From an uncultured bacterium (lineage in GTDB: Bacteria; Krumholzibacteriota; Krumholzibacteriia; Krumholzibacteriales; Krumholzibacteriaceae): 64,000 nt of DNA. The DNA is taken from assembly GCA_963813815.1 (NCBI GenBank), contig CAWFAD010000012.1, positions 147,590 through 211,589 on the forward strand. The letters run 5' to 3'. The notes under the pieces were generated by a model. The model made no database searches and had not been told where the DNA came from. It was given only the letters and a program-made list of their open reading frames with translations. Position 1 is the stretch's first letter. Each line of letters begins with the position of its first letter. The position numbers and the translations under genes are program-made. This document shows positions 1 through 41,007 of this stretch, piece by piece.

Positions 1-339
1 GAACGCGGCGATTGCTTCCTCGCGCGTTCCGTAGGGCCGAAGCAGCGTGCTGAACTCGAGGAGCTCGAAAACCTCTCTCACGTCCGGATGCATGGCCGTG
101 AGCTTGATGTCTCCCCCCCGCTGGCGTATCCCCTTGATCTCGCCCACGAAAATCCCCCAGCCCGCGGAGCTGATGTAATTCACCTCGCTGAGATCGGCGA
201 CAATGCGAACGGTGTTCGACGCGACGAGCTCGTTGAACGTATCCTCGAGAAACTGCGCCGTGCCCGAATCGATGATGCCACCGAGCTTCAGGACGACGAC
301 GTTCTCCACGTACTCTTCGCTAATAACGAGCTTGTCCAT
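1..339 (-). CDS. STAS-domain anti-sigma-factor antagonist (SpoIIAA/RsbV-like); 3' end runs off the window
   Basis: My own translation of the minus strand from ATG at 339: MDKLVISEEYVENVVVLKLGGIIDSGTAQFLEDTFNELVASNTVRIVADLSEVNYISSAGWGIFVGEIKGIRQRGGDIKLTAMHPDVREVFELLEFSTLL... This shows the typical STAS layout and a DLSxVxYISSxG phospho-acceptor motif. It is absent from the ORF track because no stop lies inside the window. Confidence 0.8.
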   Translation of the reverse strand, partial: MDKLVISEEYVENVVVLKLGGIIDSGTAQFLEDTFNELVASNTVRIVADLSEVNYISSAGWGIFVGEIKGIRQRGGDIKLTAMHPDVREVFELLEFSTLLRPYGTREEAIAAF

Positions 340-384: not shown

Positions 385-1503
385 TCAGTCCAATAATGCC
401 TTTAAAAGGATAAATATTCCCTGCTTGTCGTTCTCGGACAACCGCAGGTTTTTCTGCGCCTTCTGGTAATTCCCGTTGATTTCGAGCGCCTTTTGAAAGG
501 CCTTGTTGGCCCTGTCCATGAATATCTTGCATTTTGCGGTATAGAGGATGCCGAGGCTGTTGTGCCCGTCGGCGAAGGTCGGGTTCTGGTCGACGATCTG
601 GCGCACGCTCTCGAGATGCCCCTCGATATCCTCCTCGCGTAGATTTTCGCCGTCGTACAGAAGCATCAGGTAGAGGTCGAGCACGATGTCCTCGATCCCG
701 CCCCGCTCGGAGCGGCCACCGGCGCTCTCGAGGGCCTCGTACGCGAGCTCGTACTCCTTGCCCCGAAACAGGCTTCTCGCCTCCTCGACGCGGTTGGAGG
801 CGAGGTACGGATCGAGCTGCACGGCCCGGTCGAGATTGCCGAGAAACGCCGTATCGAGATCGCGCGCGAGCTCGTAATCCTCCTTGATGATCGTGTTGAG
901 GAGAAAGGCACGTGCGAGGTTGAGGTAGGGCTCGCCGTAGTAGAGATTGAGCCCGATGGCCCGGTTGAAGCAATCAATCGCGGCGCGGCATCGGCGCTGT
1001 TTGAGGTGTATCACGCCGAGCAGGTTGTGCAGATCGGGGTACTCGGGATTGATCGCGAGGCCGTTTTCCACGGCCTTTATGGCCGCGTCGAATTTTCCGG
1101 CCTCGAAGCTGCACGAACCGATGATCAAATGAGGAAGGGAATCCTTGTTTCCCTTTTCGATCGCATGCCGCGCCTCCTGGATCGCCTCGTCCAAGAGATG
1201 GCGCCTCGCGAGCGCCTGCGCCACGCGCAGATGCGGCTTCGGATCGTCGCTCTGGCGCACGCGGTCGGTCACGCCGAGCAGAATGAGGAAGCGCCGCTTG
1301 TTCTCGAGATGCGCCTCCTTCGTGGCCCGGCGCAGGGCTTCCGCGGGCGCCTTGCCGTCGATGGCGACGTCCGTCGTATCGAAGGGAACGCCGTTCCTGA
1401 AGAACGAGCTCTGAATGATCCCCTTTTGAGGAAGCATGCTCGTCTGCAGAAAATACTTCCGCCCGGCGTGATCGATTTCCTCTCTCAGCTCGAACCCCGT
1501 CAC
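385..1503 (-). CDS. TPR-repeat protein
   Basis: 372-aa ORF with repeated 34-aa TPR-like helical units (AIKAVENGLAINPEYPDLHNLLGVIHL, AIDCFNRAIGLN, AFQKALEINGNYQKAQKNL). GTG start at 1503 is preceded by GGAAGGAG 5 nt upstream. Confidence 0.8.
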   Translation of the reverse strand: MTGFELREEIDHAGRKYFLQTSMLPQKGIIQSSFFRNGVPFDTTDVAIDGKAPAEALRRATKEAHLENKRRFLILLGVTDRVRQSDDPKPHLRVAQALARRHLLDEAIQEARHAIEKGNKDSLPHLIIGSCSFEAGKFDAAIKAVENGLAINPEYPDLHNLLGVIHLKQRRCRAAIDCFNRAIGLNLYYGEPYLNLARAFLLNTIIKEDYELARDLDTAFLGNLDRAVQLDPYLASNRVEEARSLFRGKEYELAYEALESAGGRSERGGIEDIVLDLYLMLLYDGENLREEDIEGHLESVRQIVDQNPTFADGHNSLGILYTAKCKIFMDRANKAFQKALEINGNYQKAQKNLRLSENDKQGIFILLKALLD

Positions 1504-1561: not shown

Positions 1562-2338
1562 TTACCCTTCCCTCTCCCCGCCGGCGCAGCGTGCGCCGGC
1601 GCGATCGAGGCCGAGGATCTCCTCGGTGAGATGGTAATAATCGAACGCTCCGCGCGAAAGCGGCGCGTGTTCGAATATCGTCTTCTGCCGCCCCGGGGCC
1701 TCCCGGATCGCCTGATTCGCCCTGATGACCGTTTTGAGGAGCCGGCCTCCGAAGCGCTCGCGAAGGCTCTCGAGCATGCTGTGCGCGAGCCGGGTGCGCG
1801 AATCGTAGAACGTCGGCAGCAGCCGAATCGCAATCGGTCCGCGGCCGTTCCACGCCTGGATTTCCTCGACGATCTCGGCCGTCTGCACCGCGCCCGCCTC
1901 CGCCAGATAATCCATCGAGACGGGGATGATCACCTCGTCGCAATAGGCCAGCGCGTTGATGTTGATGAGGTTCAACGACGGCGAGCAATCGCAGATCACG
2001 TAATCGCACCCCTTGAGCTGTTTCAGCGACTCGGAGAGGCGCTGCTCGCGGTTGACGCGCGAGCCGAGCGTGAGCTCGACCTCCGCGAGGCGCCGGCCGC
2101 CCGAATCGATGAAGAAGAGATTGTCGCGCACCTGGAGAATCTCGACTTCTCCCGAGGTCAGAAGGTCCGCCAGCCCGCGCTCCCCGCGGACGCCGAGGCT
2201 GAGGGCCACGCTCCGCTGCGGATCGCAATCGATGAGGAGCACCCGCTTCCCCGTGAGCGAGAGACCGTGCGACAGGCACAGCGCGGTCGTCGTCTTGCCG
2301 GTTCCGCCCTTCATGGTCATCACAGCGTACTTTTTCAT
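1562..2338 (-). CDS. ParA/MinD-family P-loop ATPase (orphan, no parB nearby)
   Basis: MKKYAVMTMKGGTGKTTTALCL carries the deviant Walker A KGGxGKT; LLIDCDPQ and CSPSLN motifs are present. I prefer ATG at 2338 over the TTG at 2350 listed in the track. Confidence 0.85.
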   Translation of the reverse strand: MKKYAVMTMKGGTGKTTTALCLSHGLSLTGKRVLLIDCDPQRSVALSLGVRGERGLADLLTSGEVEILQVRDNLFFIDSGGRRLAEVELTLGSRVNREQRLSESLKQLKGCDYVICDCSPSLNLININALAYCDEVIIPVSMDYLAEAGAVQTAEIVEEIQAWNGRGPIAIRLLPTFYDSRTRLAHSMLESLRERFGGRLLKTVIRANQAIREAPGRQKTIFEHAPLSRGAFDYYHLTEEILGLDRAGARCAGGEREG

Positions 2339-2360
2339 GCCGCAGCCCAAACGCGCCCTT

Positions 2361-5300
2361 CTACTTCTTGCCCCGCGGCTTGCGATCCGAGTTGCGCAGC
2401 CGTTTGCCGTATTCGTCCCAGCCTATCCGCGTGATGCGCTTGTCTTTGTCTTCGCGGACGTCCGTTCGCTTCTTGAAATCGATGAAAATCACTTTCTCCG
2501 GATCCGCGACCCGCTCGAGCGGTTCGAGCGGAGCGATCTTCGAGGCGCCCAGAAGCGCGTCCGCGAGATCCTGCTTCCGGTCCTCGGGCTCGGGGGCGGG
2601 CGCTCCCGCGGGCGCTCCGGGACCGGGCGCCGCCTCGGGCGGCGCGAAATCCGCGGCGCCTTTCGCCGGCGCCAGCTCCGCGAGCGCCATTTCGAGCGTT
2701 CCGTAATGCGGAATGAGCGGCTCGAAACCGAGATCGCGGAATATATTGAGAATGCTCGAGCTCATGCCGGCGATGGCGATGCGCCCGCCGGTTTCGCCGA
2801 GCTTCTGAAGATACCTGATGATGATGCCCCATCCCCCGCTCGATATGTACACCATGCGTTCGACGTCCAGAATGAGATTGAGCGGCCGCTCATCCGCGCG
2901 CCGCGAGAGCTCCGCCTCGAACGCTTCGGCCGTCGAGGAATCGACGGCGCCGTCGATCGTCACCACGACGGTCCCTCCGACCGCGCGGGCGTCGCCTGCG
3001 GAAGCGATCGCGAGCGGCGTCCCGGCGCCCTCGGTCCGCTCCGCGCGGGGAGCCGCGGCGGCCTCGTCCGGAGGCTCCTCGTCGAGGATCTCCCCATCCG
3101 CGAGCGTCGGCGCCTCGTTCTTGAAATCCTCTATCGCCTCGGCCAGAACGCCGAAGGAGCGCATGATCGAGTCGAACCCGAGCAAGCTATAGATGCCGTC
3201 GACTTCCTGATCCATGCCGAAGATCTTGAGATCGCCGCCCCGCAGTCTGATGTCCTTGATGCGCGAGGCGAACACTCCCCAGCCGCTCGAGCTCACGTAC
3301 TCGACGCGCGACATATCGATGACGATCTTCACCGCGCCGCGGTCGACGAGCCCGTCCAGAACGGAGCGGAGGTTCACGCAGCTCACCGTGTCCACGACCC
3401 CGTCGAGGTACAACACGGTGATTTCCCCCTGATCTCCGACCGTCCCCGCCTCGATCTTGAGGGCGGCCCACGACGAATCCGTCTCCGGGACCTCTCCGGG
3501 CCCCGACGCGCCGGAAGCCGCCGTGGACTGGCGCGTTTCGAGCGTTCTGAGCGGGGCCGGGCGGGCCGATTCCCTCTCGAGTCGGCTCCGCCGCTCCGCG
3601 AGCGGGAGCGAGATATAAGCCGCCGCTTCATCGACCGTCGCGAACTGGAGGATGATCTCCTGGAAGCCGAGGAGCTCGTAGATGTCGTACACCTCCGGCG
3701 ACATGCTGGCGAGCACCACGTCCCCCTCTCCCTCGCGAAGCGATTTGACCCGCCCCGTGAAGATTCCCCAACCGCCGCTCGATATGTACATCACCCCGGC
3801 GAGATCGACGATGATCTTGCGGTATCCGTACTCGTGCACGCTTTCGAGAATTCCCTCGAGCTCTCCCGCCGACGAGGAATCGAGGTGGCCGGCCACGTGC
3901 AGCACCACCACGTCCCCCGCGAGCTCCTCCGATGTGACCTCGATCGCCCGTCCTTGGCCGGTCCCGAACGACTCGCGGGCGCCCCGCCGGCGCAGCGGCG
4001 GCGCGCTCTCGCGACGGAGGGACGGCGCCGCAGCGGCCGGACGAGCTTCGGGAACGCTCGCCGGCGCCGCTTCCTCCGGGGCGGCTTCCGCGGGGGCCTG
4101 CGGCGCCCCGGCTGCCTCGGCGGCCGCCTCGGCCGGACGGCCGTGCGCGGCGACGAGCTTCTTGAACTCCTCGTCGGAAATGAACCGGTTGCGGCGCAGA
4201 TACTCGAGCCGCATTTCGTAGGTGTTGAGCCGGATGCGCTTGAGCTCGTCGTAAACGATGGCGGGCGAGAGCAGGTCGCCCTCCGCCTTTCCCTCGTTGA
4301 ACGCCGCGGTGATCTTCTTCGCGCCGTAGCGGGGATGGTCGCGAATGATCCCGAGAAGCCCCTTCCGCTGCTCGATGCTCACGCGCCGGATATCGACCTC
4401 GCGTCGCAGCGTCTTGTCCTGCAGCCCCCGCTCCCCGAGCTCCTCGAGGCGCTTCTTGTATCGATAGTAGGTCGACGGCGACACCCGCATCATCCGGCAG
4501 GCCTCGGCGACCGCCACCCCCTGCACCTCGACGAGATCGAGGAGCTTCCGCCGGATGCCGTAGAGCACCTCGTCCGCCTGGAGCTTCTCCTTGATTGCGA
4601 CCACGGTGATGTCGTCGTTCTGCGGCTGATCGCCGGTAAAGCTCTTGATGTCGTCGTTGAGGCGATCGATGAACTCCTGCGGGGCGAGACGTCCGCACTG
4701 CTTGATGAGCCTGATGAGACGCTCCTCGCCGTATTGGTTGCGAGCGCCGTTCATCGCCTCCGTCACGCCGTCCGTATAGATGACGAGCATGTCGTCCTTC
4801 TTGAGCTTGATCTTCTCGACGTCGATCGAGCGGCGGAAGAGCGTGTCGTCGGGCAGCTTGATGCCGACCGGAAATCCTCGCGGGTTGAGAAAATACGTCT
4901 CGTCCGTCTCGGCGCGGTAGAGGATCATCGGATTGTGGCCGGCCGAGGCGTAGCTGATGATGCGGTTTTTCGAATCGAGGATCGAGTAGAAGATCGTAAC
5001 GAACATGCCTTTTTTCATGTCTTCCGTCACGAAATCGTTCATGCGCGCCATGACCTCGGCGGCCGAGTGGTTGCCCCGCGCCTCCATGCGCAGAGCCGTC
5101 CGGATCATCGTCATAACGAGCGAGCCGGGCACTCCCTTGCCGGAAACGTCCGCGACGACCACCCCGAGCGTGTCGTCGTCGACCCGCACGAAGTCGTAGT
5201 AATCGCCGCCGACCTCCTTGGCGGCCCGGTAGAGGCTCGCGATGTCGTAGCCGCCGATCGTGGGGACGCGCTTCGGGAGCAGCGTCTGCTGGATTTCCTG

Positions 5301-6593
5301 CGCGACCTGCATCTCCTTGTGGAGCCGCTCCTGCTCGACGACGTTCTTCTGGGCCTCGCGGAACTTCGACGTTATCTCGTTGAAGGCCCGGGCGATCTCG
5401 CCGATTTCCTGCGGCCCCGTGATTTGGATCTCGTCGCTGAGCGAGCCCTCGCCGATGGCGCGCACGCCGTCGGTGAGCGCCTGGATCGGGCGGACGAAAA
5501 TGGCCACGAGCAGGTAGCTGAGCGCCACCCCGGCGGCGAATACGCCGACGAGTATGAGCGTCATCATGGGCCGCGGGTCGATGATATCGCCCGTCGCGAT
5601 CGCCTCGGAGATGCCCACGACGACGCGTCCGATCTCGGAGGTCTGCCCCCGCTCGGAATCGGTCAGGTAAACGGCCTGATGAAACTCGCGAATGAGACCG
5701 AGGCTGTCGTGGGCCACCGTCCGGTACGCGGCGCCGCGATCGAGCGAGCGCACCTCGGCGGGAATCGCGTACGTCGTGAGAAACTCGTCCTGCTGGTTCG
5801 AAGCGAAGATGCGCCCGTCGGCGTGCACGACGCGGATATACTTCACCTCGGGATACCGCTTTATCTGCCGCGGAATCGCATCCGTGCTGAGCTCGAGCCC
5901 GCTCACGTCGTAGGGATCCTTCGTGAGCGCGCCGACGCTCAGGCTCGCGATGGTTTCGGCGACCCGCTTGCGCTGCAGCCAGGTGTCGGCGAATCGGTCG
6001 CGCAGCTCGTTCGTCTGACGGTAGAGGAGAATCGCCCAGAGGAACACGACGAGGCCGAAGAGGCCGAGCGTCGTGCGCAACGCGAACTTGAATCGGAGCG
6101 TCGAGGTCCACTTCGGCCGCCTGATCGAGCCGAAGAGCTGCGGCCGCGCGGCGGCCGCGGCCGAGTTTTTTACCATGTAGAGGCGATTCCCCGTCGGCGA
6201 AGCCGAATAGCTCAAATTGTCCATGAGGCGGTTCATCAGGTAGATGCCGAGACCGCCCTTCTTGCCGATTTCGACATAATGGTCGAGGTCGGGCTCCTTG
6301 ACCTTGGACCAGTCGAAGGGCTCGCCGCGGTCGAAGATGCTGATCTCGACCGTGCCCGGACCCGCCTGAACGTCGATCCGGATGTCTCCGGCTTTCTCTT
6401 TGTACGCGTGTTTGATGATGTTCGTGCATGCTTCATCGACGGCGAGCTTCGTGTTGTTCGTTTCGCCCTTCGAGAATCCCGCGCGATCGCAGATGCCGGC
6501 GATGAAATCCCGGACCTCGCTCAGGTTGTTCTCGTCCGCGGGAACCTCGAGATGGAACGTCTCGCGCTCCCGCATGCGCTCGCCGCGTTTCAC
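2361..6593 (-). CDS. Multidomain membrane signalling protein: RsbW/SpoIIAB-type Ser kinase, TM, extracytoplasmic domain, TM, HAMP, PP2C/SpoIIE phosphatase, transposase-type HTH, then three STAS domains
   Basis: Uninterrupted 1,410-aa ORF. Kinase N-box EACTNIIKHAY and G-box GKKGGLGIYLMN lie at ~6166-6560. Hydrophobic segments are at ~6020-6085 and ~5495-5572. HAMP is at ~5345-5495. PP2C motifs GGDYYDF, ADVSGKGVPGS, SAGHNP, YTDGVTEA and NDDITVV lie at ~4590-5310. HTH (VAEACRMMRVSPSTYYRYKKRLEE, DHPRYGAKKI) is at ~4200-4560. STAS units are at ~3625-3950, ~3130-3470 and ~2675-2985. GTG start overlaps the upstream stop (GTGA). Confidence 0.9.
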   Translation of the reverse strand: MKRGERMRERETFHLEVPADENNLSEVRDFIAGICDRAGFSKGETNNTKLAVDEACTNIIKHAYKEKAGDIRIDVQAGPGTVEISIFDRGEPFDWSKVKEPDLDHYVEIGKKGGLGIYLMNRLMDNLSYSASPTGNRLYMVKNSAAAAARPQLFGSIRRPKWTSTLRFKFALRTTLGLFGLVVFLWAILLYRQTNELRDRFADTWLQRKRVAETIASLSVGALTKDPYDVSGLELSTDAIPRQIKRYPEVKYIRVVHADGRIFASNQQDEFLTTYAIPAEVRSLDRGAAYRTVAHDSLGLIREFHQAVYLTDSERGQTSEIGRVVVGISEAIATGDIIDPRPMMTLILVGVFAAGVALSYLLVAIFVRPIQALTDGVRAIGEGSLSDEIQITGPQEIGEIARAFNEITSKFREAQKNVVEQERLHKEMQVAQEIQQTLLPKRVPTIGGYDIASLYRAAKEVGGDYYDFVRVDDDTLGVVVADVSGKGVPGSLVMTMIRTALRMEARGNHSAAEVMARMNDFVTEDMKKGMFVTIFYSILDSKNRIISYASAGHNPMILYRAETDETYFLNPRGFPVGIKLPDDTLFRRSIDVEKIKLKKDDMLVIYTDGVTEAMNGARNQYGEERLIRLIKQCGRLAPQEFIDRLNDDIKSFTGDQPQNDDITVVAIKEKLQADEVLYGIRRKLLDLVEVQGVAVAEACRMMRVSPSTYYRYKKRLEELGERGLQDKTLRREVDIRRVSIEQRKGLLGIIRDHPRYGAKKITAAFNEGKAEGDLLSPAIVYDELKRIRLNTYEMRLEYLRRNRFISDEEFKKLVAAHGRPAEAAAEAAGAPQAPAEAAPEEAAPASVPEARPAAAAPSLRRESAPPLRRRGARESFGTGQGRAIEVTSEELAGDVVVLHVAGHLDSSSAGELEGILESVHEYGYRKIIVDLAGVMYISSGGWGIFTGRVKSLREGEGDVVLASMSPEVYDIYELLGFQEIILQFATVDEAAAYISLPLAERRSRLERESARPAPLRTLETRQSTAASGASGPGEVPETDSSWAALKIEAGTVGDQGEITVLYLDGVVDTVSCVNLRSVLDGLVDRGAVKIVIDMSRVEYVSSSGWGVFASRIKDIRLRGGDLKIFGMDQEVDGIYSLLGFDSIMRSFGVLAEAIEDFKNEAPTLADGEILDEEPPDEAAAAPRAERTEGAGTPLAIASAGDARAVGGTVVVTIDGAVDSSTAEAFEAELSRRADERPLNLILDVERMVYISSGGWGIIIRYLQKLGETGGRIAIAGMSSSILNIFRDLGFEPLIPHYGTLEMALAELAPAKGAADFAPPEAAPGPGAPAGAPAPEPEDRKQDLADALLGASKIAPLEPLERVADPEKVIFIDFKKRTDVREDKDKRITRIGWDEYGKRLRNSDRKPRGKK

Positions 6594-8500
6594 CGCGCAC
6601 CCCCCGCTCCGCCGCTGTTCTGAAGGCGCTTGCGGGCCTCCCCGATGTTCCTCAGCACGCTCTCGTTATCGGGATCGATTTCGAGAATCCGCTGCCACCG
6701 CTCGACGGCCTTCAGGTAATTCCCGTCCGTGAAATGCTTCATTCCCTCGAGATAGAGAGCGCGCACCTCCGCCTTTTCGCCGTCGCTGAGCGGGGTCATG
6801 CGCCGCTCGGCGCGCAGCAGCAGGGTTCGCGCCTCCGCGTGCTTCGGATCGATGGAGAGCAGCTCCCTGATCTGTTTCACGGCGTCCGGATACCGCCCCT
6901 CCCCGAACGACCTCACGGCGCCGTCGTAGAGCTCCGCGACCCGGAGCCGCTTGGCCGTCGTGAGATAATCCCGGCTCATCTCGTCGACTCGCTCGTTCAG
7001 CCGCTCCACGGCTGCGAGCGCCTCGGCGGATTCGGGCACGATCGTCCGGACCATATTCCACTCGCCGAGTGCGGCTGCGAGCTGTCCCTGCCGCTCGAGA
7101 TCGAGGGCCCGCTCGCGGTGCTGCGCCGCGAGGCCATCGAGCTTCTCCTCGGTCGCTCCGAGATACTCCGCCGCCTGCCCGTTCTCCGGATCGATCTCGA
7201 GGACACTCCGCCATTCCGCGCGGGCGCGGATATAATCTCCCGTGCCGTAGTATTCGAGTCCGAGACGGAAGTGACGGTTCGTGAGGGCCGCTTTTTCGGC
7301 GTCCTTCGTCCGCTGCTCTTCCGCTGCGAGAACGTCGCGCTCGACCACGCTGATGGTGTCGGCGACGGCCCGGCTCGTCGGATCGTACTCGAGGGCGATT
7401 CTGAGCTCGTCGAGCGCCTTCGCCGGCTGCCCATCGCGCCGGAACTGCTCGGCGGAGGCAATGTGGCCGGCGATCCTCCTCGTGAGCATCTGCTGGATGC
7501 GACGTTCTTCGTCGGCGAGGCGCCGCTCCTCGCGCAGCCGTATACGGTCGTCGATCGAGGATCCGATCCGGGCGGAGAGCGAGAGCGGATGCGCGCTTCC
7601 GGCCTCCTCGCGGCTCAGATAGCCGTAATCGAATCCGAAGCCGTGCCAGCCGACGCCGACCCCCGCCGTGATGCTTTGCCCGTCGTATCCGGCGCGGATC
7701 GCGAGAAAGTCCCGGAACCGGTACTCGGCCCCGGCCCGCACCTTCGTGTCGCCGCGCGCGGGAAGATCCATCTGCGCCGCCAGCACGAGCGCGGAGCTCT
7801 TTCCCAGCGCGCGGGCGTAGCCGGCGCCGATCATCACGGTGCGGTCCACGGGCTCGCTCACCGAGACGAGCTTGATCTCCGCGCCGACGATATCCTGAAG
7901 GTTGCACCCGACGCGGAGGCCCTCCAACCAGCGCGGCTGGTACACGAATCCGACGTCGAGCCCCGTGCCGGTATCCGAGAAATCTCCGACGCGCTGGCTC
8001 AGCATCTTCGCCGACGAGCCGACGGTGACCGCGCCGGCGTAACGCCACGGCAGCGTGTACGCGTAGGCGACGATCATCTGACTCTCGCGGTAGCTGAGCT
8101 CGCCCGTTTCACGGCTCCACTCGTCGAACCCGCGGATGCCCCCCGTCCCCGCCGTCATGAAGCCCGCGCCGAGGGCGCCGGCGGAGATCGTCGGATACAC
8201 GAAACCGAGAAAGTCGTATCCCGTGTCGCTCCATCCGGAAAAGAGCTGCGCGTGGCTCGCGAGCACCGCGGTGTACCGGTTGAGCGCGAGGGCGGCCGGG
8301 TTGTAGAACAACGCCGACGCGTCGTCGCCCACGGCGGAGAAGGCTCCCCCCATGGCGATCGCCCGCGCCCCCGCCCCGACGGCAAAGATCGAGCTCGTGC
8401 CGCCCGTTCCCTCCTGCGCCGCGACGCTCGACACGAGCATCGCCGAGAGCAGGACGGCGGTCAACGCCGCATACCGATGGTTCGTTCGCATACCCATCAC
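6590..8500 (-). CDS. Outer-membrane beta-barrel (PorV/FadL-like N-terminal half) fused to a C-terminal TPR domain
   Basis: Signal peptide AALTAVLLSAMLVSSVAAQE. Motif GARAIAMGGAFSAVGDDASALFYNPAAL is typical of PorV/PorQ/FadL-type barrels and is followed by alternating beta-strand patterns. The C-terminal ~300 aa are TPR-like (AKALDELRIALEYDP, ARAEWRSVLEIDPENGQA, AVERWQRILEIDPDN). Start (GTG 8500 or ATG 8497) overlaps the stop of the giant gene. Confidence 0.7.
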   Translation of the reverse strand: MMGMRTNHRYAALTAVLLSAMLVSSVAAQEGTGGTSSIFAVGAGARAIAMGGAFSAVGDDASALFYNPAALALNRYTAVLASHAQLFSGWSDTGYDFLGFVYPTISAGALGAGFMTAGTGGIRGFDEWSRETGELSYRESQMIVAYAYTLPWRYAGAVTVGSSAKMLSQRVGDFSDTGTGLDVGFVYQPRWLEGLRVGCNLQDIVGAEIKLVSVSEPVDRTVMIGAGYARALGKSSALVLAAQMDLPARGDTKVRAGAEYRFRDFLAIRAGYDGQSITAGVGVGWHGFGFDYGYLSREEAGSAHPLSLSARIGSSIDDRIRLREERRLADEERRIQQMLTRRIAGHIASAEQFRRDGQPAKALDELRIALEYDPTSRAVADTISVVERDVLAAEEQRTKDAEKAALTNRHFRLGLEYYGTGDYIRARAEWRSVLEIDPENGQAAEYLGATEEKLDGLAAQHRERALDLERQGQLAAALGEWNMVRTIVPESAEALAAVERLNERVDEMSRDYLTTAKRLRVAELYDGAVRSFGEGRYPDAVKQIRELLSIDPKHAEARTLLLRAERRMTPLSDGEKAEVRALYLEGMKHFTDGNYLKAVERWQRILEIDPDNESVLRNIGEARKRLQNSGGAGGAR

Positions 8501-11500
8501 TTCGCCACGGCGATCTTGAAGAGCGCCGATTGCGAGCCAGCCTCGACCTTGCAGAGATACACGCCGTTTCTCACCGTTTCTCCGCGGGCGTTCCGCCCGT
8601 CCCAGGGGATCTCATGCATGATCCCGTCGGCGGAGCCGGTGCCGCCCTCCTCGCCCGAGGCGATTTCCTTCGTCCAGACGAGAATGCCGGCGAGATCGTA
8701 AATGCGGATCGATACCGCCGCGTCCTCGAGCAGGAAGTAGCAAATGCGCGTTTCCTGCGATCCCGCGGCGAAGGGGTTCGGATAGTTGTGGACATAATCC
8801 TCGAAGCGCGCGCTCAGAACGGTCAGCGGACCGCTCAGGAACGAGCCGGCGATGTCCCCGCCCTGATCGTCCACGACGCCGACGCGCGATCCCGCGCCGC
8901 CGCCCTCGAGCGTGATCGAGAAAACGACGTCGGCGCTCTCTTCGATTTCGAAGCGAATCTCCCCTGCCGGGGCGTTCGCCGCGATATCGGCGGTGAGGAG
9001 CAGCGTGTCAGCGGCGCCGGGAACGACCTCGAACGCATGTCCCGCCACGATCGGCACCGGGTTCGCCTCCGAGACCGCCGCCTCGAAGCGAACCCCTCCC
9101 GCCACGAGCGCGACGCCCGACACCCGCCGCGAAGGCGGCGAGACGAGCCGGCCGGTCCCGTCCTTGATCGCCACGTAGAGCGTATCGAGCCCGATCGTGT
9201 AACCCGACGTGTTCTCGAACTCGGCGCGCATGATCGGCACGCCGGCGGCCCCCTGGGGAACGACGACCGGCGGGATGGTATCGAGGGAGGAGAGGTTCAA
9301 CATGCGCACGGCGCCCGTCTCCGTCTGCACCGGCAGGAACACTTCGCCCGTCGTCACCGCGCAGGCGAGGTTCGTGTTGACGTCCTCCGCCAGCGGCTCG
9401 ACGAACCTGATCTGCAGGTTCCCGGGGGACGTGGGCTCGGCGGGCGCGCGCACGTTCCACGCGACGGGCTCGCCCGGATAGAACGGCTTCCGGTAGGTCT
9501 CGCCCGCTCCGTCGAGATCGTAATTCTGGCCCGAGGGCAGGACGAGCTCGATCCGCGCTCCCGCCGTGTCGACGCCCGCCTCGCCCGCATTGGCCGCCGT
9601 CGCTTCGATCGTGAACGACTGATTCACGGACAGGATCCCGTCGAGCGCCCCGTCGGGACCCGATATCCGCCCGGCGAGGGCGAGAGCCGCTTTTTCGACC
9701 GCGCGCACGGCGAACACGACGCGGCGAACGGGGAGCCGCTCGCCCGAGTTGGCGTCCACGCCTCCCGCCCGTCCGACGAGCGTGTCGACCGGAGCGGCGA
9801 TCGAGGGCGCCCGAACGGTCCAATCGAGCGTTACGAGCTCTCCGGCGCCGGCTCCGACAAACTTGATCATGTCCCCCGCGACGGCGTACCCGGCGGGCGC
9901 CGAGAGCTCGGCCCACACCGAATCGGCGTTGACCGAGGGAACGAGCGCCACGCGCGCGACGAACTCCTGATCCGTCGAGAGAACGCCGTCGACGGCTCCC
10001 GCGGGGGCCGCCACGGACACCGAGCATTCGGCGATGCCTCCGGCCTCTTCCGTACGCGCGACGATGCGCGACTCGGCGGTTTGGATTGCCGCGGGCGAGC
10101 CGATATTGATGTCGTTCGGAACGGAGCTGATCGACGCCCGCAGGGTGTCGAGCGACGGAGCCGCCGGCGCTACCAGCGTCCACTCGAGCGGCGCGCCCGC
10201 GTCGAACCGCCTCGTGAGCGGATCCGCCGGATCGGCGAGGCTCATCGAGACCGGCAACGCGAGCGTCACCCTGCCCGTCGTATCGATCGCGGCTTCTCCC
10301 GCGTTTTCGACGAGAACGGTCACGACGAAGATCTGACCGGTCGAAAGCGTGTCGTCGATCGCCCCCGCCGGCGAGGTGATGGAAGCGCCGCACGCGAGGA
10401 GCGCGGCGGTTTCAATCCTCAGATTCTCGATCGACTCGACGGCCTCCGCCGGCGTCACGGGCTCTCCCGTGTTGACGGAAACCGCCTTCACGATCGAGGC
10501 GCGCAGATATTCCACGGCGCTCGACGGCGCCGCCGTCACCGCGTAGACGAAATCCCGTTCGGTTCGCGACGGCATGTAGGCGAGAGAGTCTCCCTCGACG
10601 AGGGTGCCCGAAACGCCGCTCGTCGCGAGCCTCACGAGAACGCTGTCGAGATCGTCCCCGCCCGTATTCTCCACCCGCACCGTGAGGTTGAAGGTCTGGC
10701 CGGTGTTGACGATCGACGTGTTCGCGAATGAGGCGTTGTTCGGCGCGTCGCTCGTCACGGCGACTATTCTGAGCCCGGAAGGAGGCCGCACGAGCACCGA
10801 TCCGCTCCCCGAGGCCGGCGGTCGCGGCGCCTCGGGCTCGTTGCCGTCGATCCAACCGAGCGTGGCGGCGATATCGACCGAGCCGGTATCGCGGCCCGTC
10901 GCGGCGATTCGATAGAGAAGCGTATCGGCCGCGCCTCCCTCGAGCACGAGCGGCGAGGCTCCCGACACGAAGGTCTCCGGCGCGATGACGAGGTACCCTC
11001 CGACCGAAACGCCGTCGATGGAGAATGCCAGATCGTCCGAAGCGGCGGCGTCGATCTCGAGCGGCGCCTCGCCGTCGTTCCGCACGCCGACATCGATGGT
11101 CCACTCGATGGTCTGTCCGGCGTTCACCGCCTCCTGCGAAGGGGTGACGGCGGTCACGACGAGCGCCGCCGGTCTCTGTATCACGGCCAGCGCCGTATCA
11201 TCCACGGCGGCGTCGAACAGCACGTAATCGCTCTCACCCGAGTTGGCGTCGACGGCCGAGCGGATGCGCGCCGTGAAAATCTCCGAGCCCTCGCCATCCG
11301 CGGTCACGAGAAACGTGTCGGAAGCCGACGCGAACCCGGCGATGGCATCGATGAAGACGAGGGTGTCGGCGATGGCGGACGAGCCCGAACCCTCGAGCGC
11401 GACGCCGACGTTCTCGACTCGCGCCTCGCCGCCGTTCGCAACTTCGGCGACGACGACGAACTGCTGCCCCGAGTCGACGTACGGCGCGCGCGGAGCCGCG

Positions 11501-14500
11501 GTGGCCGCGAGCGCGACCGCCAGCCGGGCCTGCGCCTGCACGCGGATCGAGCCCGAACCCGAGCCGTCGAGCCGCGTGTCGTAGGAACGATGAACGCCGT
11601 TGTTGTTCTCCACGAGCTCGACGTCCGCATGGAGCTCGATGTCGGCGCCCGCGGGAATCTCCGGCGTCGGAGAAACGGAGAACACGAGGTGGCGGCATTC
11701 GCCGCCCGGCAGATCGAGCCCCCCCTCGACGAACGCCGGCGGCCGCGCATGGGCGAGCGGCAGACCCTCGTCGCGGTAGACGCGCGCGCTGTCGGGGATG
11801 AGCGTGAGATCAGCCTCCCCCGCGTTGCAGACCTCGCACGCGATCTGCCACGGGGTCGTTTGCGCCGAGGTCACGGTCGCCCGCGAGGGCGCGCTCGAAA
11901 CGACGGCGGGATCGCCGGGCAGCTCGACCATGACGTGGCTGAAACCGCCGCTATAGGTATCGTCAGAGACGGTGAGATTGCTGTTGACGTCGGTGCCCGT
12001 CACCGTTCCGTTCACGAGGGCGATGCCCGGGGTCGAACCCGTGGAGGTCACCGTGAAGAGGAGACTGTCGACCGCCCCTCCCGGAAGAATGGCGCCTCCG
12101 ATGCCCGAGAGCGCCGCCGGGCGTACGACGGTATATTCATACGTCCGGTCTCCCACCCCGACGATCGTAAAGGTGAGGAAGGTCTTCGCCGCCGCGAGAT
12201 CGAGGGAAACGGACGCCTCGCCGCTGTTCCGGAGCTTCATCCATACGTTCCACGGCTCCGTCTGGGAGCGGGTCACCGATTGAGGCGTGACGATGCCGCT
12301 GATACCGAGCTGGGGCGCCTGCTCCACGAGAACGGAATCGGGCGAGAGCGGCAGCACGGTCGAGAACGGATTGCCGTTCTCCTCCCCGACGAGCCGGATG
12401 AACGCGGCGTGCCTGCCGAGCGAGAGAGCGACGTCGACGAGCGCGGCGTCGAAGAGCAGCGTTTGCTGGCTCGCGCTCGGCAGCACGTTGGGGGACACGT
12501 CCGAAAGCGACGTGCGGACGGTGTCGCCGTCGGCGTCGCCGAAGCTGAGCGTCGTCGCCGAGCGATCGAGCGTGAGGGTCGAGCGCAGACCGGCATCCGC
12601 GGCGATAGCCGCCTCGAACGAGACGCTCGTGCCGCTGCTCGCGGCGAGTGGAGCGAGGCTTCCCGTCACGTACGACGGATCGGGAGGCAGCTCGAACGTG
12701 ACGGTATCCTCCGGCGCCGCCCGCGACGCGAAGACGTGCCGGTCGCTCGTCGTTTCCACGGCGAGAACGGAGCCCGCGAGCGCCAGCGTTCCCGGAGAGA
12801 TCATTCCCGTCGTCGACACGGTGAACACGAGCCGCCCCGCGGCGCCGCCGCGCAGAACGGTTCCGCCCTCGACGAGCGCGAGCGGATTGTCGATGACGAA
12901 CCCCGATCCCCCCGGAATCACGACCCGGGTCGAATCGATCCGCCCCAGCTCGAGCGCCGCGTCCGACTGCCCGGTGTTGCGCACTTCCATTTCGACGCTC
13001 CACGCGCGATCCTGCGATACGGTCACGGGATTCTGGAGCGGCGTGATGCGGGAGATCGCGAGCGCGGCGGGCGTCTGCACGAGCACGTCCCCGCTGATTC
13101 CCTGATCGCCGCTCGCGAGAGAAATAATCCTGCCGCTCGTGAGCTCCGTGCCCCGGACGGTCGACTCGACGACGCAGGGTCCGGCGACCGAGCCGCTCCG
13201 GTCGATCCGCCAGCGGAGCGTATCCGTCGATCCTCCCTCGAGCACGACGCCGCCTCCGGCGAGCTCGACCGGCGGAACGACGATGAAATCGCCCGAGGTC
13301 GAGAAGGCGATAAAGCTGGCCGCCGGATCGAGATCGAGCCCGAGGTCGGATTGACCGGCGTTCCGCACCGCCACGTCGCAGAACCAATCCTTCGTCTGAA
13401 GCGCCGTGACCGTGTCCGTCGAGGCCGTGACGGCCGCGAAGACGAGGCTCGCCGGCGTCTGCACGAGATAGCTCCCCTTGCCTCCGTACTCGGTCGTGGC
13501 GAGCAACGAAGCGCCGCTATTGAGATCCCGCCCCGCGAGAGCGGATTCGATGACGATCGTGCCCGTCGTCATGGCCCCGGAGGGATTGTCATCGAGCCTC
13601 ACGAGAATCGCGCGCGTTTCGCCGCCGAGGAGAGAGTCGACATTGGGCGTGAAATCGAGCGGCGCGAGGATGCATTCCCCCGTCACATCGACCGGCCCGG
13701 CGAGGAGGCGCATGGAAAAGCTCTCGAGGCGCACGGTGGCTCCGCCGTTGTTCCTGACCTGCACGCTCGCGAACCAGGGGGTCGCCTGATCCGCCGTGAC
13801 CATGGGGGCGGGCAGCACCGTCGTGCTCGTGATGGCGAGCTGCGAGGGCTCTTGTACCCCGACGCTATCGGCGAGCGCGAAGATCGACGCGAAACGGAGG
13901 CCGTTCTCGGATCCTCCGATCGCGAGTGAAGGCGGGTAGCTCCCGACGGCCATGTCTGAGGGCACGACGGCCGCTCTGAAATAGAGCGTCGCGACGCCGG
14001 GATCGATCGTTCGCCCGCGCGTCGCGTCGAGGGAGGCGGCATACGTCAGGGAGCCGTCCGTGAAGGTGAACCACGTCGAGTCGGGATCGCAGAGGACGCT
14101 CGCGCCCCCCGAGTTGGCCACGCCGACACCGAACGAGACGTCGCTCTGCTTGCTCACAACCGCCGGGGCGAGAGTGCCTATCACGTACGAGACCGCCGCG
14201 GGATCCACGACCCTCATCTCGTCGGAGAGAACGAGCGTCGTATCGAAAAACCCGCCGTTTTCGGTTCCGCGGAGCCGCACCGCGACAGGCCAGCTTCCCG
14301 CGTCCATGGCCGTAGGCACAGAGACCGGCGGAAACACGAGCGCCGTGGCCGTGTTGCCCGGGATCGCCCCCGCGTAACCGAGCGGGACGGAAACGGCGTC
14401 GGCTCCGTCCGTGAAGGAGAGCCTCGTCTCCGACGGATCGAGTATGAGCGCCGCGTCGCCGGCGTTGCGCACGGAGAGGGAGAACGAATGCGTCTGCCCT

Positions 14501-17500
14501 CGCGATACGGTGTCCGGATCGAGCGTGGAGGCGACGTAGGACAGCGACGCCGCCGCCTGCACGAAGATGACCGACACGTTCGGATAGGCCGTTTGATCCT
14601 GCACCTGCGAGCCGTTGGCCTGCGCGGTGATCGACGCGTCGATCGTGTCGAAACCGAGCGGAGAGTAGCCGAGAGCGAATATATCATGACGGTAGAGCCG
14701 CTCCGCCCCCGGAGCGAGATCGTCCGGAAGCGGCGGATTCCAATCGCCGGCCATACCGTAGAAACCATTCGCGAACTTCAACGTTATGTCGATCACCGAC
14801 ACCGTCGAGCCGCCGCCGTTGCGCACGCGCACGTCCACGGTGAACGTGTCCCCCCGGCTCACGATCGCTTTCTCGGAAACGACCTGCAGGATGTCGACGT
14901 CCGAGACCGATACCGAATTCGATCCGGCGCTGAACTCGCCGCGGTACGAGAAACCGTAGATATCGTTCCCCGCGAGCGCCACGCGCGGCGTGTACGTGCC
15001 GCCGAGCAGGCCGGCGGGAACGACGACCGTTTGGAAGTCGAGCGTATCGGTCGCGGAGCCCCGCAGAAACGCGGGTGCCGCGAGATGAGCCTCGTAGACG
15101 TGTCCGAGACTGTCCGCGAACGATATGGTCGTCGCGGTCGAAAGGTACGTTCCCGTCGGACTCGTGTTGGAGGTCGAGCAGCGGAACTGAGCCGGCTCCG
15201 TGGGAAGGAGATGCCGCGGCGCGAGGTAGCCCGCATAGAGGCAAACGGGCGCCGGAGCGAACACCACGGCCACCGATCCGACCGCGCTTCCAGTGACGCT
15301 CTGGAACTCGACCGTCGAAACGGCCGGCGAGGTCGCGGAACGAACGAAGACGGACACCGCGCCGCTCGCCTCCGTCTGGCGCTCGACGGTGAGCGGCGTC
15401 GAGGGATCCTTGTCTTCGCTGATGACCGTTCCGGCGGAGGCCGTGACGCGCACGAGGGTGCCCGGCGCGACGACGTTGCCGTAGACATCGCGTATCGCCC
15501 CCGTGCTGATGGCGCTCGTGCTCGTGCCGTTCGCCGTGATGGTGTCGGGGATCACCGTCGCGATGCCGATCGCCCCGCTCGGCGCCTCGGGCGACACCGT
15601 GATCGTGCCGCTGTAGCTCGTGGCGCCCCCGGCGAGCGTCCGGGCCCGGAGAACGAGGAGCTCCGCGACGGTATCCCGGGCGCTCGCGGTCGCGCGGCCG
15701 GCCGACAGCGTGACCGGGTTTACGGCGAACGTCGCGGAGCCGTCGCTCGCGAGCAGCACCCGGGTCGTGTCGTCGTCGAACGCTTCGTTCCCGTACCCGT
15801 CGTACGCGATTATCTCGACGGCGAAGCTCTCCCCCGCCTTTTTGGCGAAACCGTCCGGAATGACGTCGAACCGGGCGATGGTGCCCGCGATCGTCCCGAC
15901 GTCGAACACGACCTGCTCGAGCAGGGGCGGCGAGGCGTCGAGAATGGAGGCCGAAACCGAATTGACGCCGGCATTCGCGTCGGTCGTGAGCGCGCAGAGC
16001 GCCGCGCCGCCGGCGTCCGTGAGAACGAGCCCGTCGTTCGCGGCGCCGGTGCCGTCCCAGAGGACCGGGGATCCGCCGAGATCGCTCGTGACCTGAAAGC
16101 GAACGATCTCGTCCGGCGCGGCGTTGCCGTACCGGTCCGTCACGCGGGCCCTGAGATCGACGGAAGCCCCCGCGATGACCCCGGAGGTGTCTCCGTTGAC
16201 CTCGACGACGCGGTAGGCGGCCGCCGGTTCGATCGCGATCTCCGCGCTCCAGGGAGCGAGCGTATCTCCGGCGAGCGAGAGGACGGCGATGCGGTTCGCC
16301 CCCGCCGTCGAATCGAAAGCCGTGAACGAGGAGACGCCCGCGAGAAGCGTCATGACATCCGGGGTGAAATCGATCGACGCGCGCTCGGCCACCGCCCTGA
16401 GCCCGGTGCTCGAATCGGTATCGATCAGGTTACCGTAAACGTCGTACGCCGCGACCTCGCAGGTGAACATTTCTCCGGCCGTGAAGGACGTTCCGGGCAG
16501 CGACAGCGCGACACGGTCGATGGCGCTCCGCGGAACGGTCGTCACGGTGAATCCCTGCGTCTCGAGACCCTCGGGACTCGCGTCGAGAATGGCGGCGCGC
16601 GCCCGATTCGTCCCGCAGAGCGTATCCGTGCGGAACCAAGCCCGAGCGACGCCCGCAGCGTCGCTCACCGCGAGCGGCGACGAGATCGCCCCGCCGCCTT
16701 CCTGCACGGTAAAGAACACGCTGTGGCCGTCGACCGTGTTGCCGTACGCGTCGAGCACACGCGCGGCGAGACGCACCGAATCCCCCACGGCGACTCCCGA
16801 GCTGTCCCCGCCGATCTTCACGAGCTGGTAGGCCGCTGCGTTGCCCACGGAGACGGCGCCGCTATACCCCTTGACGGCATTGCTCACGCTCGAGACCTCG
16901 ACGCGGATGGGCTCCGCCACGGTGTACCGGAAATTGGCGCCGGCAAAGAGCCCGTTCACGAGCGTTCCGCTCGCGGGCGAAAGGGCGCTCGAGGCCGTCT
17001 GTGTGCTGTCGGAAGCCTCGACGGCCCTGAAATCGACCGTATAGCCGGCGGAGGCGACCCGGTTGCCGTAGAGATCGCGCGCCTCGGCCGTGACGGCGAA
17101 CTCCGCCCCCGCGACCGCAGCGGCGGGAGCGGTGACGACGTAGGAGCTCACGACATCGTTCGCCACGATGAGAATCGGAATCTGCGCCGGCGCGAGGACC
17201 GCCGCTTCGTCCAGAGCGTCGATCTGCCATGAGCCGGCCCGCGTGCCTCGACCGTAGATGATAACGGCTCCCGAGGCGAGGTCCGCTTCGGTGATCGTCG
17301 CGCCGAAATCGCTCAAGCTGAACGAGAAGCCGCCGTCGACCGACGCTTGGAGAAGTATGCGGCTCGAGTTCGCGAGGTCCCGGTTGCCGTTCCCGTCGAC
17401 CGCCTCGACGACGAAGGAGAAGGTGATGCCCGCCTGCGACGTCGCCCCGGCGAGAACGGTCGCCCGCAGATCGGTCGCCCCGCTCGAAACGGACGAATAG

Positions 17501-23361: not shown

Positions 23362-23655
23362 CTTTCGAATCCGGCTCCCGGCCCTGTTTTCGCAGCTGAT
23401 TCGGAAAATTCGCAAGGTGTGTGCCAACACCCCGTTAACTGCTGAAACGCCGGGAAAAGGGCCCGGGCTTTCAGGGAAGACGGCTCGCCGCGAGAATCTC
23501 CGAATGCCACTGAGCATCGTAACTGATTCCGGGACAAGCAGTTAACACCATTCCTTGGAGCTGGTTCGAAGCGGCGTAATCCCTCTTCGCCGCGGACTTC
23601 ACCGGATGAACGATCCGCGGCGTCCGCTATCACGGCCCGGCATCGCCACACGCTG

Positions 23656-23684
23656 AAAATAGCAAACTCCCGGGCAAATCGCAA
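23656..23684 (-). promoter_or_regulatory. Candidate sigma-70-type promoter for the giant gene (TTGCGA-N17-TATTTT)
   Basis: Minus-strand reading gives TTGCGA tttgcccgggagtttgc TATTTT, located ~290 nt upstream of ATG 23361 in a 466-bp intergenic gap. Confidence 0.4.
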
Positions 23685-24220: not shown

Positions 24221-24223
24221 GAT

Positions 24224-36596: not shown

Positions 36597-36631
36597 CGTG
36601 CCTCCTTTTTCAGCGCCCCCGCCGTGAAACG

Positions 36632-38905: not shown

Positions 38906-38963
38906 GTTTCCCCGGACCTCCTCATCCCATCTTGCGGCTGGGATATCGAAACGCTTCAACAAG

Positions 38964-40922: not shown

Positions 40923-40979
40923 AGTTCCCTTCTTTATGTCTTGTAAATCGCGCGCAACCAACATCCCAACGCTATATGT

Positions 40980-41007
40980 AATATAGGATTTAATACCGCC
41001 CTGTCAA
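40980..41007 (-). promoter_or_regulatory. Near-consensus sigma-70-type promoter (TTGACA-N16-TATATT)
   Basis: Minus-strand reading gives agTTTGACAgggcggtattaaatccTATATTaca, ~60 nt upstream of ATG 40922 and just downstream of a terminator. Confidence 0.55.

Follow-up and report, generated by a model that had tools for sequence, protein, structure and literature searches.

A predicted membrane-bound Ser kinase-phosphatase with an embedded helix-turn-helix module and three fused STAS domains in an adhesin gene cluster of Krumholzibacteriota

Partner switching is a textbook mechanism, and the outputs of several non-canonical systems (e.g. SypA) are not known. A 64,000-nt stretch of DNA from an uncultured bacterium of the Krumholzibacteriaceae (assembly GCA_963813815.1, contig CAWFAD010000012.1, positions 147,590 to 211,589), here called the window, carries one large open reading frame (ORF) in which the kinase, phosphatase and antagonist domains of such a switch are joined to a membrane sensor and a putative DNA-binding module. 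What does this protein control? We read it as a putative SypE-like bifunctional sensor that would set the phosphorylation of STAS domains and would have a non-sigma output, probably its own helix-turn-helix (HTH) module, tied to an adhesin/type IX secretion system (T9SS) cassette. Taken as a whole, this reading seems to us about as apt to be right as wrong.

As shown in Table 1, the large gene was uninterrupted from its GTG start over 1,410 amino acids (aa), as the first-pass annotation of the window had stated; it lies on the minus strand, for which that annotation gave no indication. The domain order of its product was RsbW-type kinase, transmembrane (TM) helix, Cache-like domain, TM helix, HAMP, PP2C, bipartite HTH and three STAS domains. 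That annotation had placed kinase, sensor, HAMP, PP2C, HTH and STAS within one membrane protein, and this was confirmed. Each of the kinase, PP2C and STAS motifs that it quoted was found in the translation, and the profile search that it proposed recovered the kinase, HAMP, PP2C, HTH and three STAS domains in Pfam. Its two hydrophobic helices around a domain of ~150 aa agreed with hydropathy, its HAMP-like linker was a Pfam match, and its HTH block was recognised by HTH_28, HTH_29, HTH_23 and HTH_32 (aa 681-781).

The G+C content at third codon positions (GC3) was uniform along the minus-strand frame. A plus-strand ORF of 1,536 aa at 2013..6623 failed the coding filter (GC3 >0.75 and GC2, the value at second positions, <0.55) that the minus-strand frame passed, and because of this it is read as an apparent antisense shadow ORF of 66% GC DNA. 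Alternatively, the long ORF might have arisen by chimeric assembly, or by frameshifts that join kinase, phosphatase, transposase-HTH and STAS genes which are in truth separate, and both the likeness of the HTH to IS481/IS630 transposase N-termini and the occurrence of STAS as a gene of its own in other phyla would suit such an origin. However, when 5.8 billion proteins were searched, upwards of 120 clusters of 1,380-1,550 aa showed 45-82% identity over the full length and the same Pfam set; they came from NCBI, JGI, ENA and Logan assemblies labelled Krumholzibacteriota or Latescibacterota. The full-length architecture in so many clusters, from different assemblies and sources, therefore excludes an assembly fusion or hidden frameshift. 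The three fused STAS blocks in ~20 GTDB species loci, the uniform coding GC3, the invariant HTH residues and the missing transposase catalytic domain also speak against it. As far as sequence data can tell, a chimera, a frameshift or a transposase insertion was rejected on this conservation across independent assemblies, and we give it practically no chance of being true.

Conservation was judged from two alignments, of 17 and 65 sequences, and the structure of aa 1-1165 was modelled with AlphaFold2 (AF2). The model was confident for the kinase, periplasmic domain, HAMP, STAS1 and STAS2, and was used for per-domain secondary structure only, not for interdomain packing. The best sequence match of the kinase domain in the PDB was RsbW (6M36, E 1.9e-18), with SpoIIAB next; the RsbW equivalog score in NCBIfam was 90.9, below the cut-off of 145. 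The N-box (E54/N58), G1 box (D88xG90) and G2 box (GGLG, 113-116) were all found, their residues E54/N58, D88/G90 and G113-G116 were invariant among 65 homologues, and the domain was modelled at a predicted local distance difference test score (pLDDT) of ~90. The domain is thus predicted to be a GHKL Ser kinase with N, G1 and G2 boxes, of the kind used in partner switching. A basic stretch precedes TM helix 1, pointing to a cytoplasmic N-terminus, and AF2 gave a single long helix (166-224) that spans TM helix 1. Between the two TM helices, the Pfam model sCache_3_2 matched aa 207-295 of the window protein with 23 bits, under its cut-off of 28.4, and matched the FCPU426 homologue with 33.5 bits, over the cut-off. 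In the AF2 model this periplasmic domain had helices and a five-stranded sheet (pLDDT 80-93) in a PDC/Cache-like pattern. It was the least conserved part of the protein in the alignment.

The HAMP sequence was near-invariant and is joined to PP2C by a helical linker of ~40 aa (AF2 helix 395-437). The metal-binding residues D464, D482, D608 and D660/D661 were invariant in the 65 sequences, and a PP2C/PPM phosphatase with the metal-binding aspartates expected in partner switching is accordingly predicted. The region of aa 338-667 matched the SiaA model NF038263 of NCBIfam with 82.4 bits (E 2.7e-23), far short of its equivalog cut-off of 700 bits. Pfam found no Response_reg (REC, receiver) match in the large protein and no Sigma54_activat AAA+ domain, the domain looked for in an enhancer-binding protein. 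The large protein is an inner-membrane signalling protein with the kinase and the HAMP-PP2C-HTH-STASx3 part in the cytoplasm and the Cache-like domain in the periplasm.

The HTH module has two parts. HTH_29, HTH_28 and HTH_23 matched aa 681-727, each over its gathering score, and HTH_32 extended the match to aa 781. Subdomain 1 is of the HTH_28/29/23 type with the recognition helix SPSTYYRYKKR, which was invariant in both alignments; subdomain 2 is HTH_32-like. The module followed PP2C in 74 of 74 loci (tblastn). In an AF2 model of aa 668-835 (pLDDT 80) it formed two three-helix subdomains with a linker between them, and the top Foldseek matches were DNA-bound Pax5/Pax6 paired domains and the DNA-binding domains of TnsB, SETMAR, Mos1 and Mu. 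NCBIfam matched it to IS481/IS630 transposase N-termini; with the IS481 model only positions 2-109 of 284 were covered, at 53 bits against a cut-off of 224. An IS481/IS630-type transposase was rejected, as the N-terminal HTH alone matched and neither Pfam nor NCBIfam found a DDE/rve transposase catalytic domain in the large protein. From Pfam, the IS481/IS630 matches and Foldseek, the module is a recruited bipartite transposase/paired-type DNA-binding module and not a mobile element; its paired/transposase likeness rests mainly on Pfam. In two homologues subdomain 1 gave weak, sub-threshold matches to Sigma70_r4/ECF region 4, which were not taken as a sign of sigma-factor mimicry.

Pfam STAS covered three stretches of the large protein (E 3.9e-51), and these domains matched TIGR00377, the anti-sigma antagonist superfamily model of NCBIfam, with 154.5 bits, over its cut-off. 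The best solved match of STAS1 was SpoIIAA. Ser939 aligned with the position at which 1TH8_B has Ser and 1TID_B has Ala; this SpoIIAA position is taken to be the phospho-acceptor Ser, with Ser1102 and Ser1252 as its predicted equivalents. S938/S939 and S1101/S1102 were invariant in the 65 sequences. In STAS3, the most divergent copy (28-32% identity to STAS1 and STAS2), D1243, Y1249, S1252, G1254, W1255 and G1256 were invariant in the 17-sequence alignment. Three STAS domains with a phosphorylatable Ser context, as originally claimed, were therefore recovered, and each would be a STAS antagonist of the partner-switching kind with its Ser at the start of helix 2. Every STAS copy of the cassette had the unusual motif SS[AG]GWG.

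The switch had been described as a complete circuit in one protein. This did not hold: a stand-alone STAS gene was found at the left end of the window, in the same position as in three homologous loci (L001-L003), each of which has two such genes. The window copy was 71% identical to the first stand-alone STAS of L001 and is a probable trans substrate of the large protein. A separate STAS-only gene, as in the SypE system, was also present in all the other lineages examined. The free STAS proteins of Eisenbacteria, Zixibacteria, Ignavibacteria, Calditrichota and KSB1 had a conserved C-terminal extension of ~70 aa (L065 13314-14027, L079 4041-4739, L034 13700-14503, L072 14499-15170 and ~90 others) that had no Pfam match and the consensus ...NPDSGMFQIIKTLNTPRFGNIKLGWFEMRKYLKQLNLDSKKKR. 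In hhalign comparisons, this extension matched HTH subdomain 2 of the large protein with Prob 96.9 (E 1.4e-10) and the tail at the C-terminus of the window protein with Prob 96.8 (E 2e-10), while two control comparisons gave no match. Residues D1384, G1391, W1392, Y1395, G1396 and L1399 of the tail were invariant in the 17-sequence alignment. As judged by these profiles, the tail is a remnant of the winged-helix-like extension of the free STAS proteins, and because the two are homologous by hhalign, STAS3 with the tail has the appearance of a STAS-winged-helix gene that was absorbed. Related modules of helix-turn-helix type are carried by the kinase/phosphatase and its putative substrate alike.

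How widely this arrangement occurs was seen from GTDB species representatives, of which at least 569 stretches encode relatives; the best 80 were examined. They came from Krumholzibacteriota, Latescibacterota, Eisenbacteria, FCPU426, Zixibacteria, Ignavibacteria, Calditrichota and KSB1, with a few odd labels among the metagenome-assembled genomes (MAGs). The kinase-TM-HAMP-PP2C-HTH core is thus spread over candidate phyla of the Fibrobacterota-Chlorobiota-Bacteroidota (FCB) superphylum. In Eisenbacteria, FCPU426, Zixibacteria, Ignavibacteria, Calditrichota and KSB1 the core ORF stops after the HTH, sometimes with an acidic tail or tetratricopeptide repeats (TPR), and a single STAS is a separate gene, adjacent or beyond the ParA gene. 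In the Calditrichota and KSB1 cores (L079 211-3936, L072 9950-14263) the HTH was followed by a long acidic low-complexity stretch and then a C-terminal TPR. Three fused STAS blocks together with two free STAS genes were found only in Krumholzibacteriota and Latescibacterota, in the ~20 loci mentioned above. On these sequences the triple-STAS fusion is lineage-specific. All carriers seen were MAGs, and a search for cultured carriers with a Caldithrix-like core protein as query returned MAGs only.

Gene context, which the first-pass annotation had overlooked, is the best clue to the function of the large protein. Synteny was counted by tblastn with pieces of the window proteins against the loci. 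All 70 loci with enough upstream sequence had a homologue of the PorV/Q-TPR gene directly before the large gene, and the C-terminus of the giant protein lay upstream of that gene in nearly all loci. The loci L001-L003 (47-59% identity) keep the order giant Big_1 protein, PorV/Q-TPR, large protein, ParA-like ATPase, TPR protein, STAS, STAS. After the second STAS follow a protein of ~725 aa, an LTD (lamin-tail domain) protein and two more proteins of no assigned family. These genes would lie beyond the left edge of the window; in L001 (17211-23697), L002, L003 and Eisenbacteria they encode ~725, ~550 (LTD), ~260 and ~560 aa, none with an NCBIfam match.

The giant protein of the window combines Big_1/Invasin_D3 repeats, at least 13 in number, with CARDB and, at its C-terminus, a sorting domain of T9SS type A. 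Its score with TIGR04183 was 24 bits, marginally over the cut-off of 23, and the assignment is also backed by T9SS-related partial matches and the C-terminus YPNPF...KIAVAK. The true start of the gene is probably the signal-peptide Met at nt 23361 and not the annotated ATG at 23517. GC skew was strongly negative (-0.15 to -0.32) at 18-22 kb, within the repeat region of this gene. The 636-aa protein encoded next matched the PorV/PorQ model NF033709 with 108.5 bits (cut-off 90), and in five other lineages the upstream gene matched PorV_fam of NCBIfam over the cut-off, with 94-142 bits. The C-terminal half of this 636-aa protein consists of ~300 aa of periplasmic TPR repeats (Pfam). Its gene overlaps the stop of the giant gene, and the start of the large gene overlaps its own stop by 4 nt (GTGA). 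The ParA-like gene starts 22 nt past the stop of the large gene and gave partial matches in NCBIfam. The longest mechanical ORF over this gene (1500-2279) had no Pfam match and was set aside as the wrong frame. In Krumholzibacteriota and Latescibacterota the ParA-like gene adjoins the large gene; in Zixibacteria and Ignavibacteria it lies between core and STAS; and in the Eisenbacteria, FCPU426, Calditrichota and KSB1 loci it was not detected by tblastn.

Of the 64 kb, the ORFs at ~0.4-44 kb, apart from the small ones at 23.8-24.65 kb, and at 44.6-60.7 kb were scanned with Pfam. Among the scanned ORFs there was no sigma-70-family or anti-sigma gene, in agreement with the earlier claim that no such target is encoded nearby, and also no GGDEF gene and no enhancer-binding protein gene. 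No sigma factor gene was listed in the 10-kb flanks of L001-L003. The cognate sigma gene that a partner-switching operon usually holds is thus missing from these ORFs and flanks.

The sigma-54-type -24/-12 element upstream of the giant gene is the sole match of the window to TGGCAY-N5-TTGC, where 0.04 would be expected in 64 kb. One such match also stood just upstream of the giant gene in each of the five Eisenbacteria loci whose sequence reaches the 5' end of that gene. The cassette appears to be sigma-54-dependent in at least two phyla, as far as these motifs tell, and its sigma-54 activator must be an AAA+ protein encoded elsewhere. In the five Eisenbacteria loci (L025, L027, L037, L051, L053) a shared dyad, TTGCRAWTYGCA (GCATTGCGAATTGCAATGC in L053), lay ~115-130 nt upstream of the -24 element and may be an enhancer or operator. 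The window has a dyad, TTGCGATTTGC, at 23674-23684 (minus strand), ~250 nt upstream of the -24 element; it was not significant window-wide. A perfect 10-nt inverted repeat immediately before the sigma-54 element (GTTAACTGCT / AGCAGTTAAC, 23434-23443 / 23537-23546, with 93 nt between its arms) is at about chance level. Scans for sigma-70-type promoters, terminators and repeats upstream of the giant gene gave nothing convincing.

Table 1. Positions of the large gene, its encoded domains, the neighbouring genes and the promoter elements. Coordinates are those of the window unless a locus is named.
Feature	Position	Strand	Remarks
Whole large ORF	2361..6593	-	1,410 aa; GC3 0.86; N-terminus agrees with homologues
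RsbW/SpoIIAB-type Ser kinase (HATPase_c_2)	6168..6545	-	aa 17-142; Pfam E 8.5e-31
TM helix 1	6012..6086	-	aa ~170-194; Kyte-Doolittle peak 2.07
Periplasmic Cache/PDC-like sensor domain	5577..6011	-	aa ~195-339; ~145 aa between TM helices
TM helix 2	5493..5576	-	aa ~340-367; Kyte-Doolittle peak 2.53
HAMP	5376..5507	-	aa 363-406; Pfam 41.2 bits, cut-off 25
PP2C/SpoIIE phosphatase	4590..5180	-	aa 472-668; Pfam E 2.9e-51
Bipartite HTH module	4176..4553	-	aa 681-806; Pfam above gathering scores
STAS domain 1	3609..3944	-	aa ~884-995; putative acceptor Ser939 in YISSGGWG; SpoIIAA 1TH8_B E 5.8e-10
STAS domain 2	3120..3458	-	aa ~1046-1158; putative acceptor Ser1102 in YVSSSGWG; Pfam STAS_2 1063-1141
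STAS domain 3	2685..2996	-	aa ~1200-1303; putative acceptor Ser1252 in YISSGGWG; third STAS stretch
Conserved C-terminal tail	2364..2507	-	aa ~1363-1410; D..IR..GW..YG..L and basic end
Stand-alone STAS gene	1..339	-	C-terminus cut by window start; motif DLSEVNYISSAGWG; ISSAGWG
TPR protein	385..1503	-	372 aa; Pfam TPR; same size and position in L001-L003
ParA/MinD/BcsQ-like P-loop ATPase	1562..2338	-	258 aa; KGGTGKTT; AAA_31 E 1e-33, CbiA, BcsQ
PorV/PorQ-family outer-membrane barrel and TPR protein	6590..8500	-	636 aa; signal peptide; barrel aa 40-311
Giant Big_1/Invasin_D3 repeat protein	8497..23517	-	5,006-aa ORF; Big_1 E 1e-198, 13 stretches
Sigma-54-type -24/-12 element TGGCACACACCTTGC	23412..23426	-	~50 nt upstream of giant signal-peptide start
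Sigma-54-type element, Eisenbacteria L025	1615-1629		
Sigma-54-type element, Eisenbacteria L027	1736-1750		
Sigma-54-type element, Eisenbacteria L037	740-754		
Sigma-54-type element, Eisenbacteria L051	630-644		
Sigma-54-type element, Eisenbacteria L053	835-849		

Elsewhere the window encodes two small CBM48-like lipoproteins, PPDK, a T9SS-tailed subtilase, DUF4438, large ORFs without Pfam match and the housekeeping genes glyS, recO, corC, 7TM-HD, phoH, aspS and hisS. Two small tandem genes on the minus strand (23831-24223 and 24227-~24650), by eye CBM48/E-set glycogen-binding-like, lie just upstream of the promoter of the giant gene, and the next gene, at 24655-26595, had Pfam AMPK1_CBM and CBM_48 matches. 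The subtilase (Peptidase_S8, 32478-34877, minus strand) has a C-terminal FlgD_ig-type domain and is probably a second T9SS-sorted protein. Four or five large ORFs (581-803 aa) at 35334-44309 on the minus strand had no Pfam match and a GC content of 0.60-0.62, against ~0.67 elsewhere.

Which known systems does the large protein resemble? Regulators of the ToxR/CadC type likewise join DNA binding in the cytoplasm, membrane anchoring and periplasmic sensing in a single chain, with an N-terminal OmpR-type winged helix and no enzymatic domains; compared with them, the DNA-binding domain of the large protein is a bipartite paired/transposase-like HTH that follows PP2C. The RsbU/V/W and SpoIIE/AA/AB systems have the same three domain families and the same catalytic and acceptor residues, but they consist of separate proteins with a sequestered sigma factor as output, whereas the window encodes one membrane protein with an embedded DNA-binding module. 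The first-pass annotation had named Rv1364c of M. tuberculosis, a soluble protein, as the known fusion precedent. Rv1364c also fuses a phosphatase, an anti-sigma kinase and STAS in one chain, but in the order PAS, PPM, kinase and one STAS, against kinase, TM sensor, HAMP, PPM, HTH and three STAS in the window protein (PMC12143880). A nearer one exists, as the order kinase, sensor, PP2C is already found in SypE (PMC3610818).

V. fischeri SypE, acting on the STAS-only protein SypA, is the closest precedent. It has an N-terminal RsbW-like kinase, a central input region and a C-terminal PP2C domain in one chain, a STAS protein substrate encoded in the same cell-surface-structure locus, and no known sigma target (PMC3610818; PMC8256260). 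SypE differs in being cytoplasmic and in having a REC input, where the window protein has TM, Cache-like domain, TM and HAMP, and it is without HTH and without fused STAS; the likeness meant here is architectural. SiaA of the P. aeruginosa SiaABCD system has two TM helices, HAMP and PP2C, as in aa 170-668, and takes part in a non-sigma partner switch, but the kinase (SiaB) and substrate (SiaC) are separate, the acceptor is Thr and the output is the diguanylate cyclase SiaD (PMC7647112; PMC8457831). A giant protein with a type A sorting domain followed by a PorV/PorQ barrel gene recalls T9SS cargo with PorV/PorQ-family shuttle proteins (PMC12618676); the barrel of the window differs in its ~300-aa C-terminal TPR arm and in being dedicated to the cassette. 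We found no link between T9SS and a partner-switching module described in the literature. No curated family spanned the whole protein (NCBIfam gave only domain-level or sub-threshold matches), and literature searches on this architecture and on the carrier phyla turned up no description of it. The early judgement that the architecture was not recognised as described therefore stood for the whole protein and failed for its kinase-sensor-PP2C layout, which is known from SypE. Known already are the kinase-sensor-phosphatase plan (SypE), the TM-HAMP-PP2C plan (SiaA) and the three-domain fusion (Rv1364c). Novelty lies in bringing these plans together in one chain, in a Cache-like input at the membrane, in a paired-like HTH within the chain, in the fusion of three STAS domains in two phyla and in the strict association with a T9SS giant protein and PorV/Q-TPR.

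A mechanism can be proposed from the precedents of SypE/SypA, RsbU/V/W, SiaABC and the PPM phosphatases coupled to HAMP and coiled coils. The large protein would be a dimeric bifunctional Ser kinase/phosphatase. Its kinase would phosphorylate Ser939, Ser1102 and Ser1252 in cis and the corresponding Ser in both stand-alone STAS proteins, and PP2C would strip the phosphate from these five STAS domains, three in cis and two in trans. That STAS is separate in six lineages and fused in two argues that the STAS domains are the substrates of the kinase and phosphatase. A periplasmic cue, for which the state of the PorV/Q-like protein's periplasmic TPR arm or of the giant cargo is one candidate, would pass from the Cache-like domain through TM helix 2, HAMP and the helical linker and shift the balance of kinase and phosphatase. 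A HAMP and coiled-coil route is reported to control PPM phosphatases (PMC12143880). The most speculative step is the output, which would be the paired/transposase-like DNA-binding module in the same chain and not a sigma factor; in other phyla the winged-helix-like extension of the STAS protein may also be part of it. The phosphorylation state of STAS would control DNA binding at the membrane, and with it the expression of the sigma-54-driven adhesin/T9SS cassette or of other targets. The HTH is favoured as output because it belongs to the invariant core and is homologous to the extension of the STAS proteins.

Several points weigh against this proposal. The kinase activity, the phosphatase activity, the acceptor sites and the DNA binding are predictions throughout. 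For aa 1-1165 the AF2 model had a predicted template modelling score (pTM) of 0.34 with PP2C poorly modelled, and it is therefore silent on whether the kinase reaches the STAS serines in cis. The Foldseek E-values of the HTH were non-significant (0.13-2, with probabilities up to 0.95), and the HTH region had chance matches only and no sequence relative in the PDB. A sigma-54-type promoter needs an AAA+ enhancer-binding protein, which the large protein is not, so simple activation of its own operon by the HTH is unsupported. SypA, in addition, acts after transcription on a target that is not known (PMC3610818), and a sigma factor could be encoded outside the window. The last point leads to a classical anti-sigma switch, in which the RsbW-like domain would hold a distant sigma factor at the membrane, dephosphorylated STAS domains would displace it and the HTH would be an accessory. 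The closest solved relatives of the kinase are genuine anti-sigma kinases, it also has RsbW matches in NCBIfam, the STAS domains exceed the cut-off of the antagonist superfamily model, and the visible genome is 64 kb only. A distant sigma factor is also possible as output. But the kinase falls well short of the RsbW equivalog cut-off, no sigma gene was found among the scanned ORFs or in the flanks of L001-L003, and SypE, SiaB and BtrW are such kinases without the need to hold a sigma factor. The invariant HTH of all 74 loci and the homologous STAS extension would moreover be left unexplained, and we regard this switch as improbable.

An output like that of SypA deserves more weight. Here unphosphorylated STAS domains, fused or free, would bind a non-DNA partner, with the ParA-like ATPase, the TPR protein and the T9SS machinery as candidates, and control the export or positioning of the adhesin, and the HTH would serve for anchoring or autoregulation. 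V. fischeri SypE and SypA act downstream of syp transcription in a surface-polysaccharide locus (PMC3610818), and the sigma-54-type promoter of the cluster calls for another activator. The position of the ParA-like gene, directly after the large gene or, in Zixibacteria and Ignavibacteria, between core and STAS, would also suit such an output. However, the four lineages in which that gene went undetected show that it is no universal partner, and its conservation is far narrower than that of the HTH and of the winged-helix-like domain linked to STAS. In this specific form we consider the proposal rather unlikely, while a SypA-like non-DNA target as such is nearly as likely as the HTH output. 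To return to the HTH output, it can be extended to a sigma-less transcription switch, tethered to the membrane and gated by phosphorylation, in which the built-in paired/transposase-derived DNA-binding module and the winged-helix-like module of STAS would replace the sigma factor and which would report the export or attachment of the T9SS adhesin, sensed in the periplasm through the PorV/Q TPR arm. We offer this extension tentatively and consider it rather unlikely.

The practical value of the finding is limited for now, since the carriers are all MAGs and heterologous biochemistry is the only route at present. The cassette nevertheless provides a natural fusion series, with STAS separate in six lineages and triple-fused in two, and its invariant DNA-binding module is a candidate non-sigma output of partner switching. 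In the genomes it goes strictly together with a PorV/Q-TPR protein of its own and with a giant surface protein secreted through T9SS, and we found no description in the literature of regulation of T9SS cargo outside Bacteroidota. As hundreds of uncultured species of the FCB superphylum carry it, a major role in the control of envelope or adhesion is probable in those phyla. If the sigma-less switch is true, it would be an undescribed signalling cassette common to much of the FCB superphylum.

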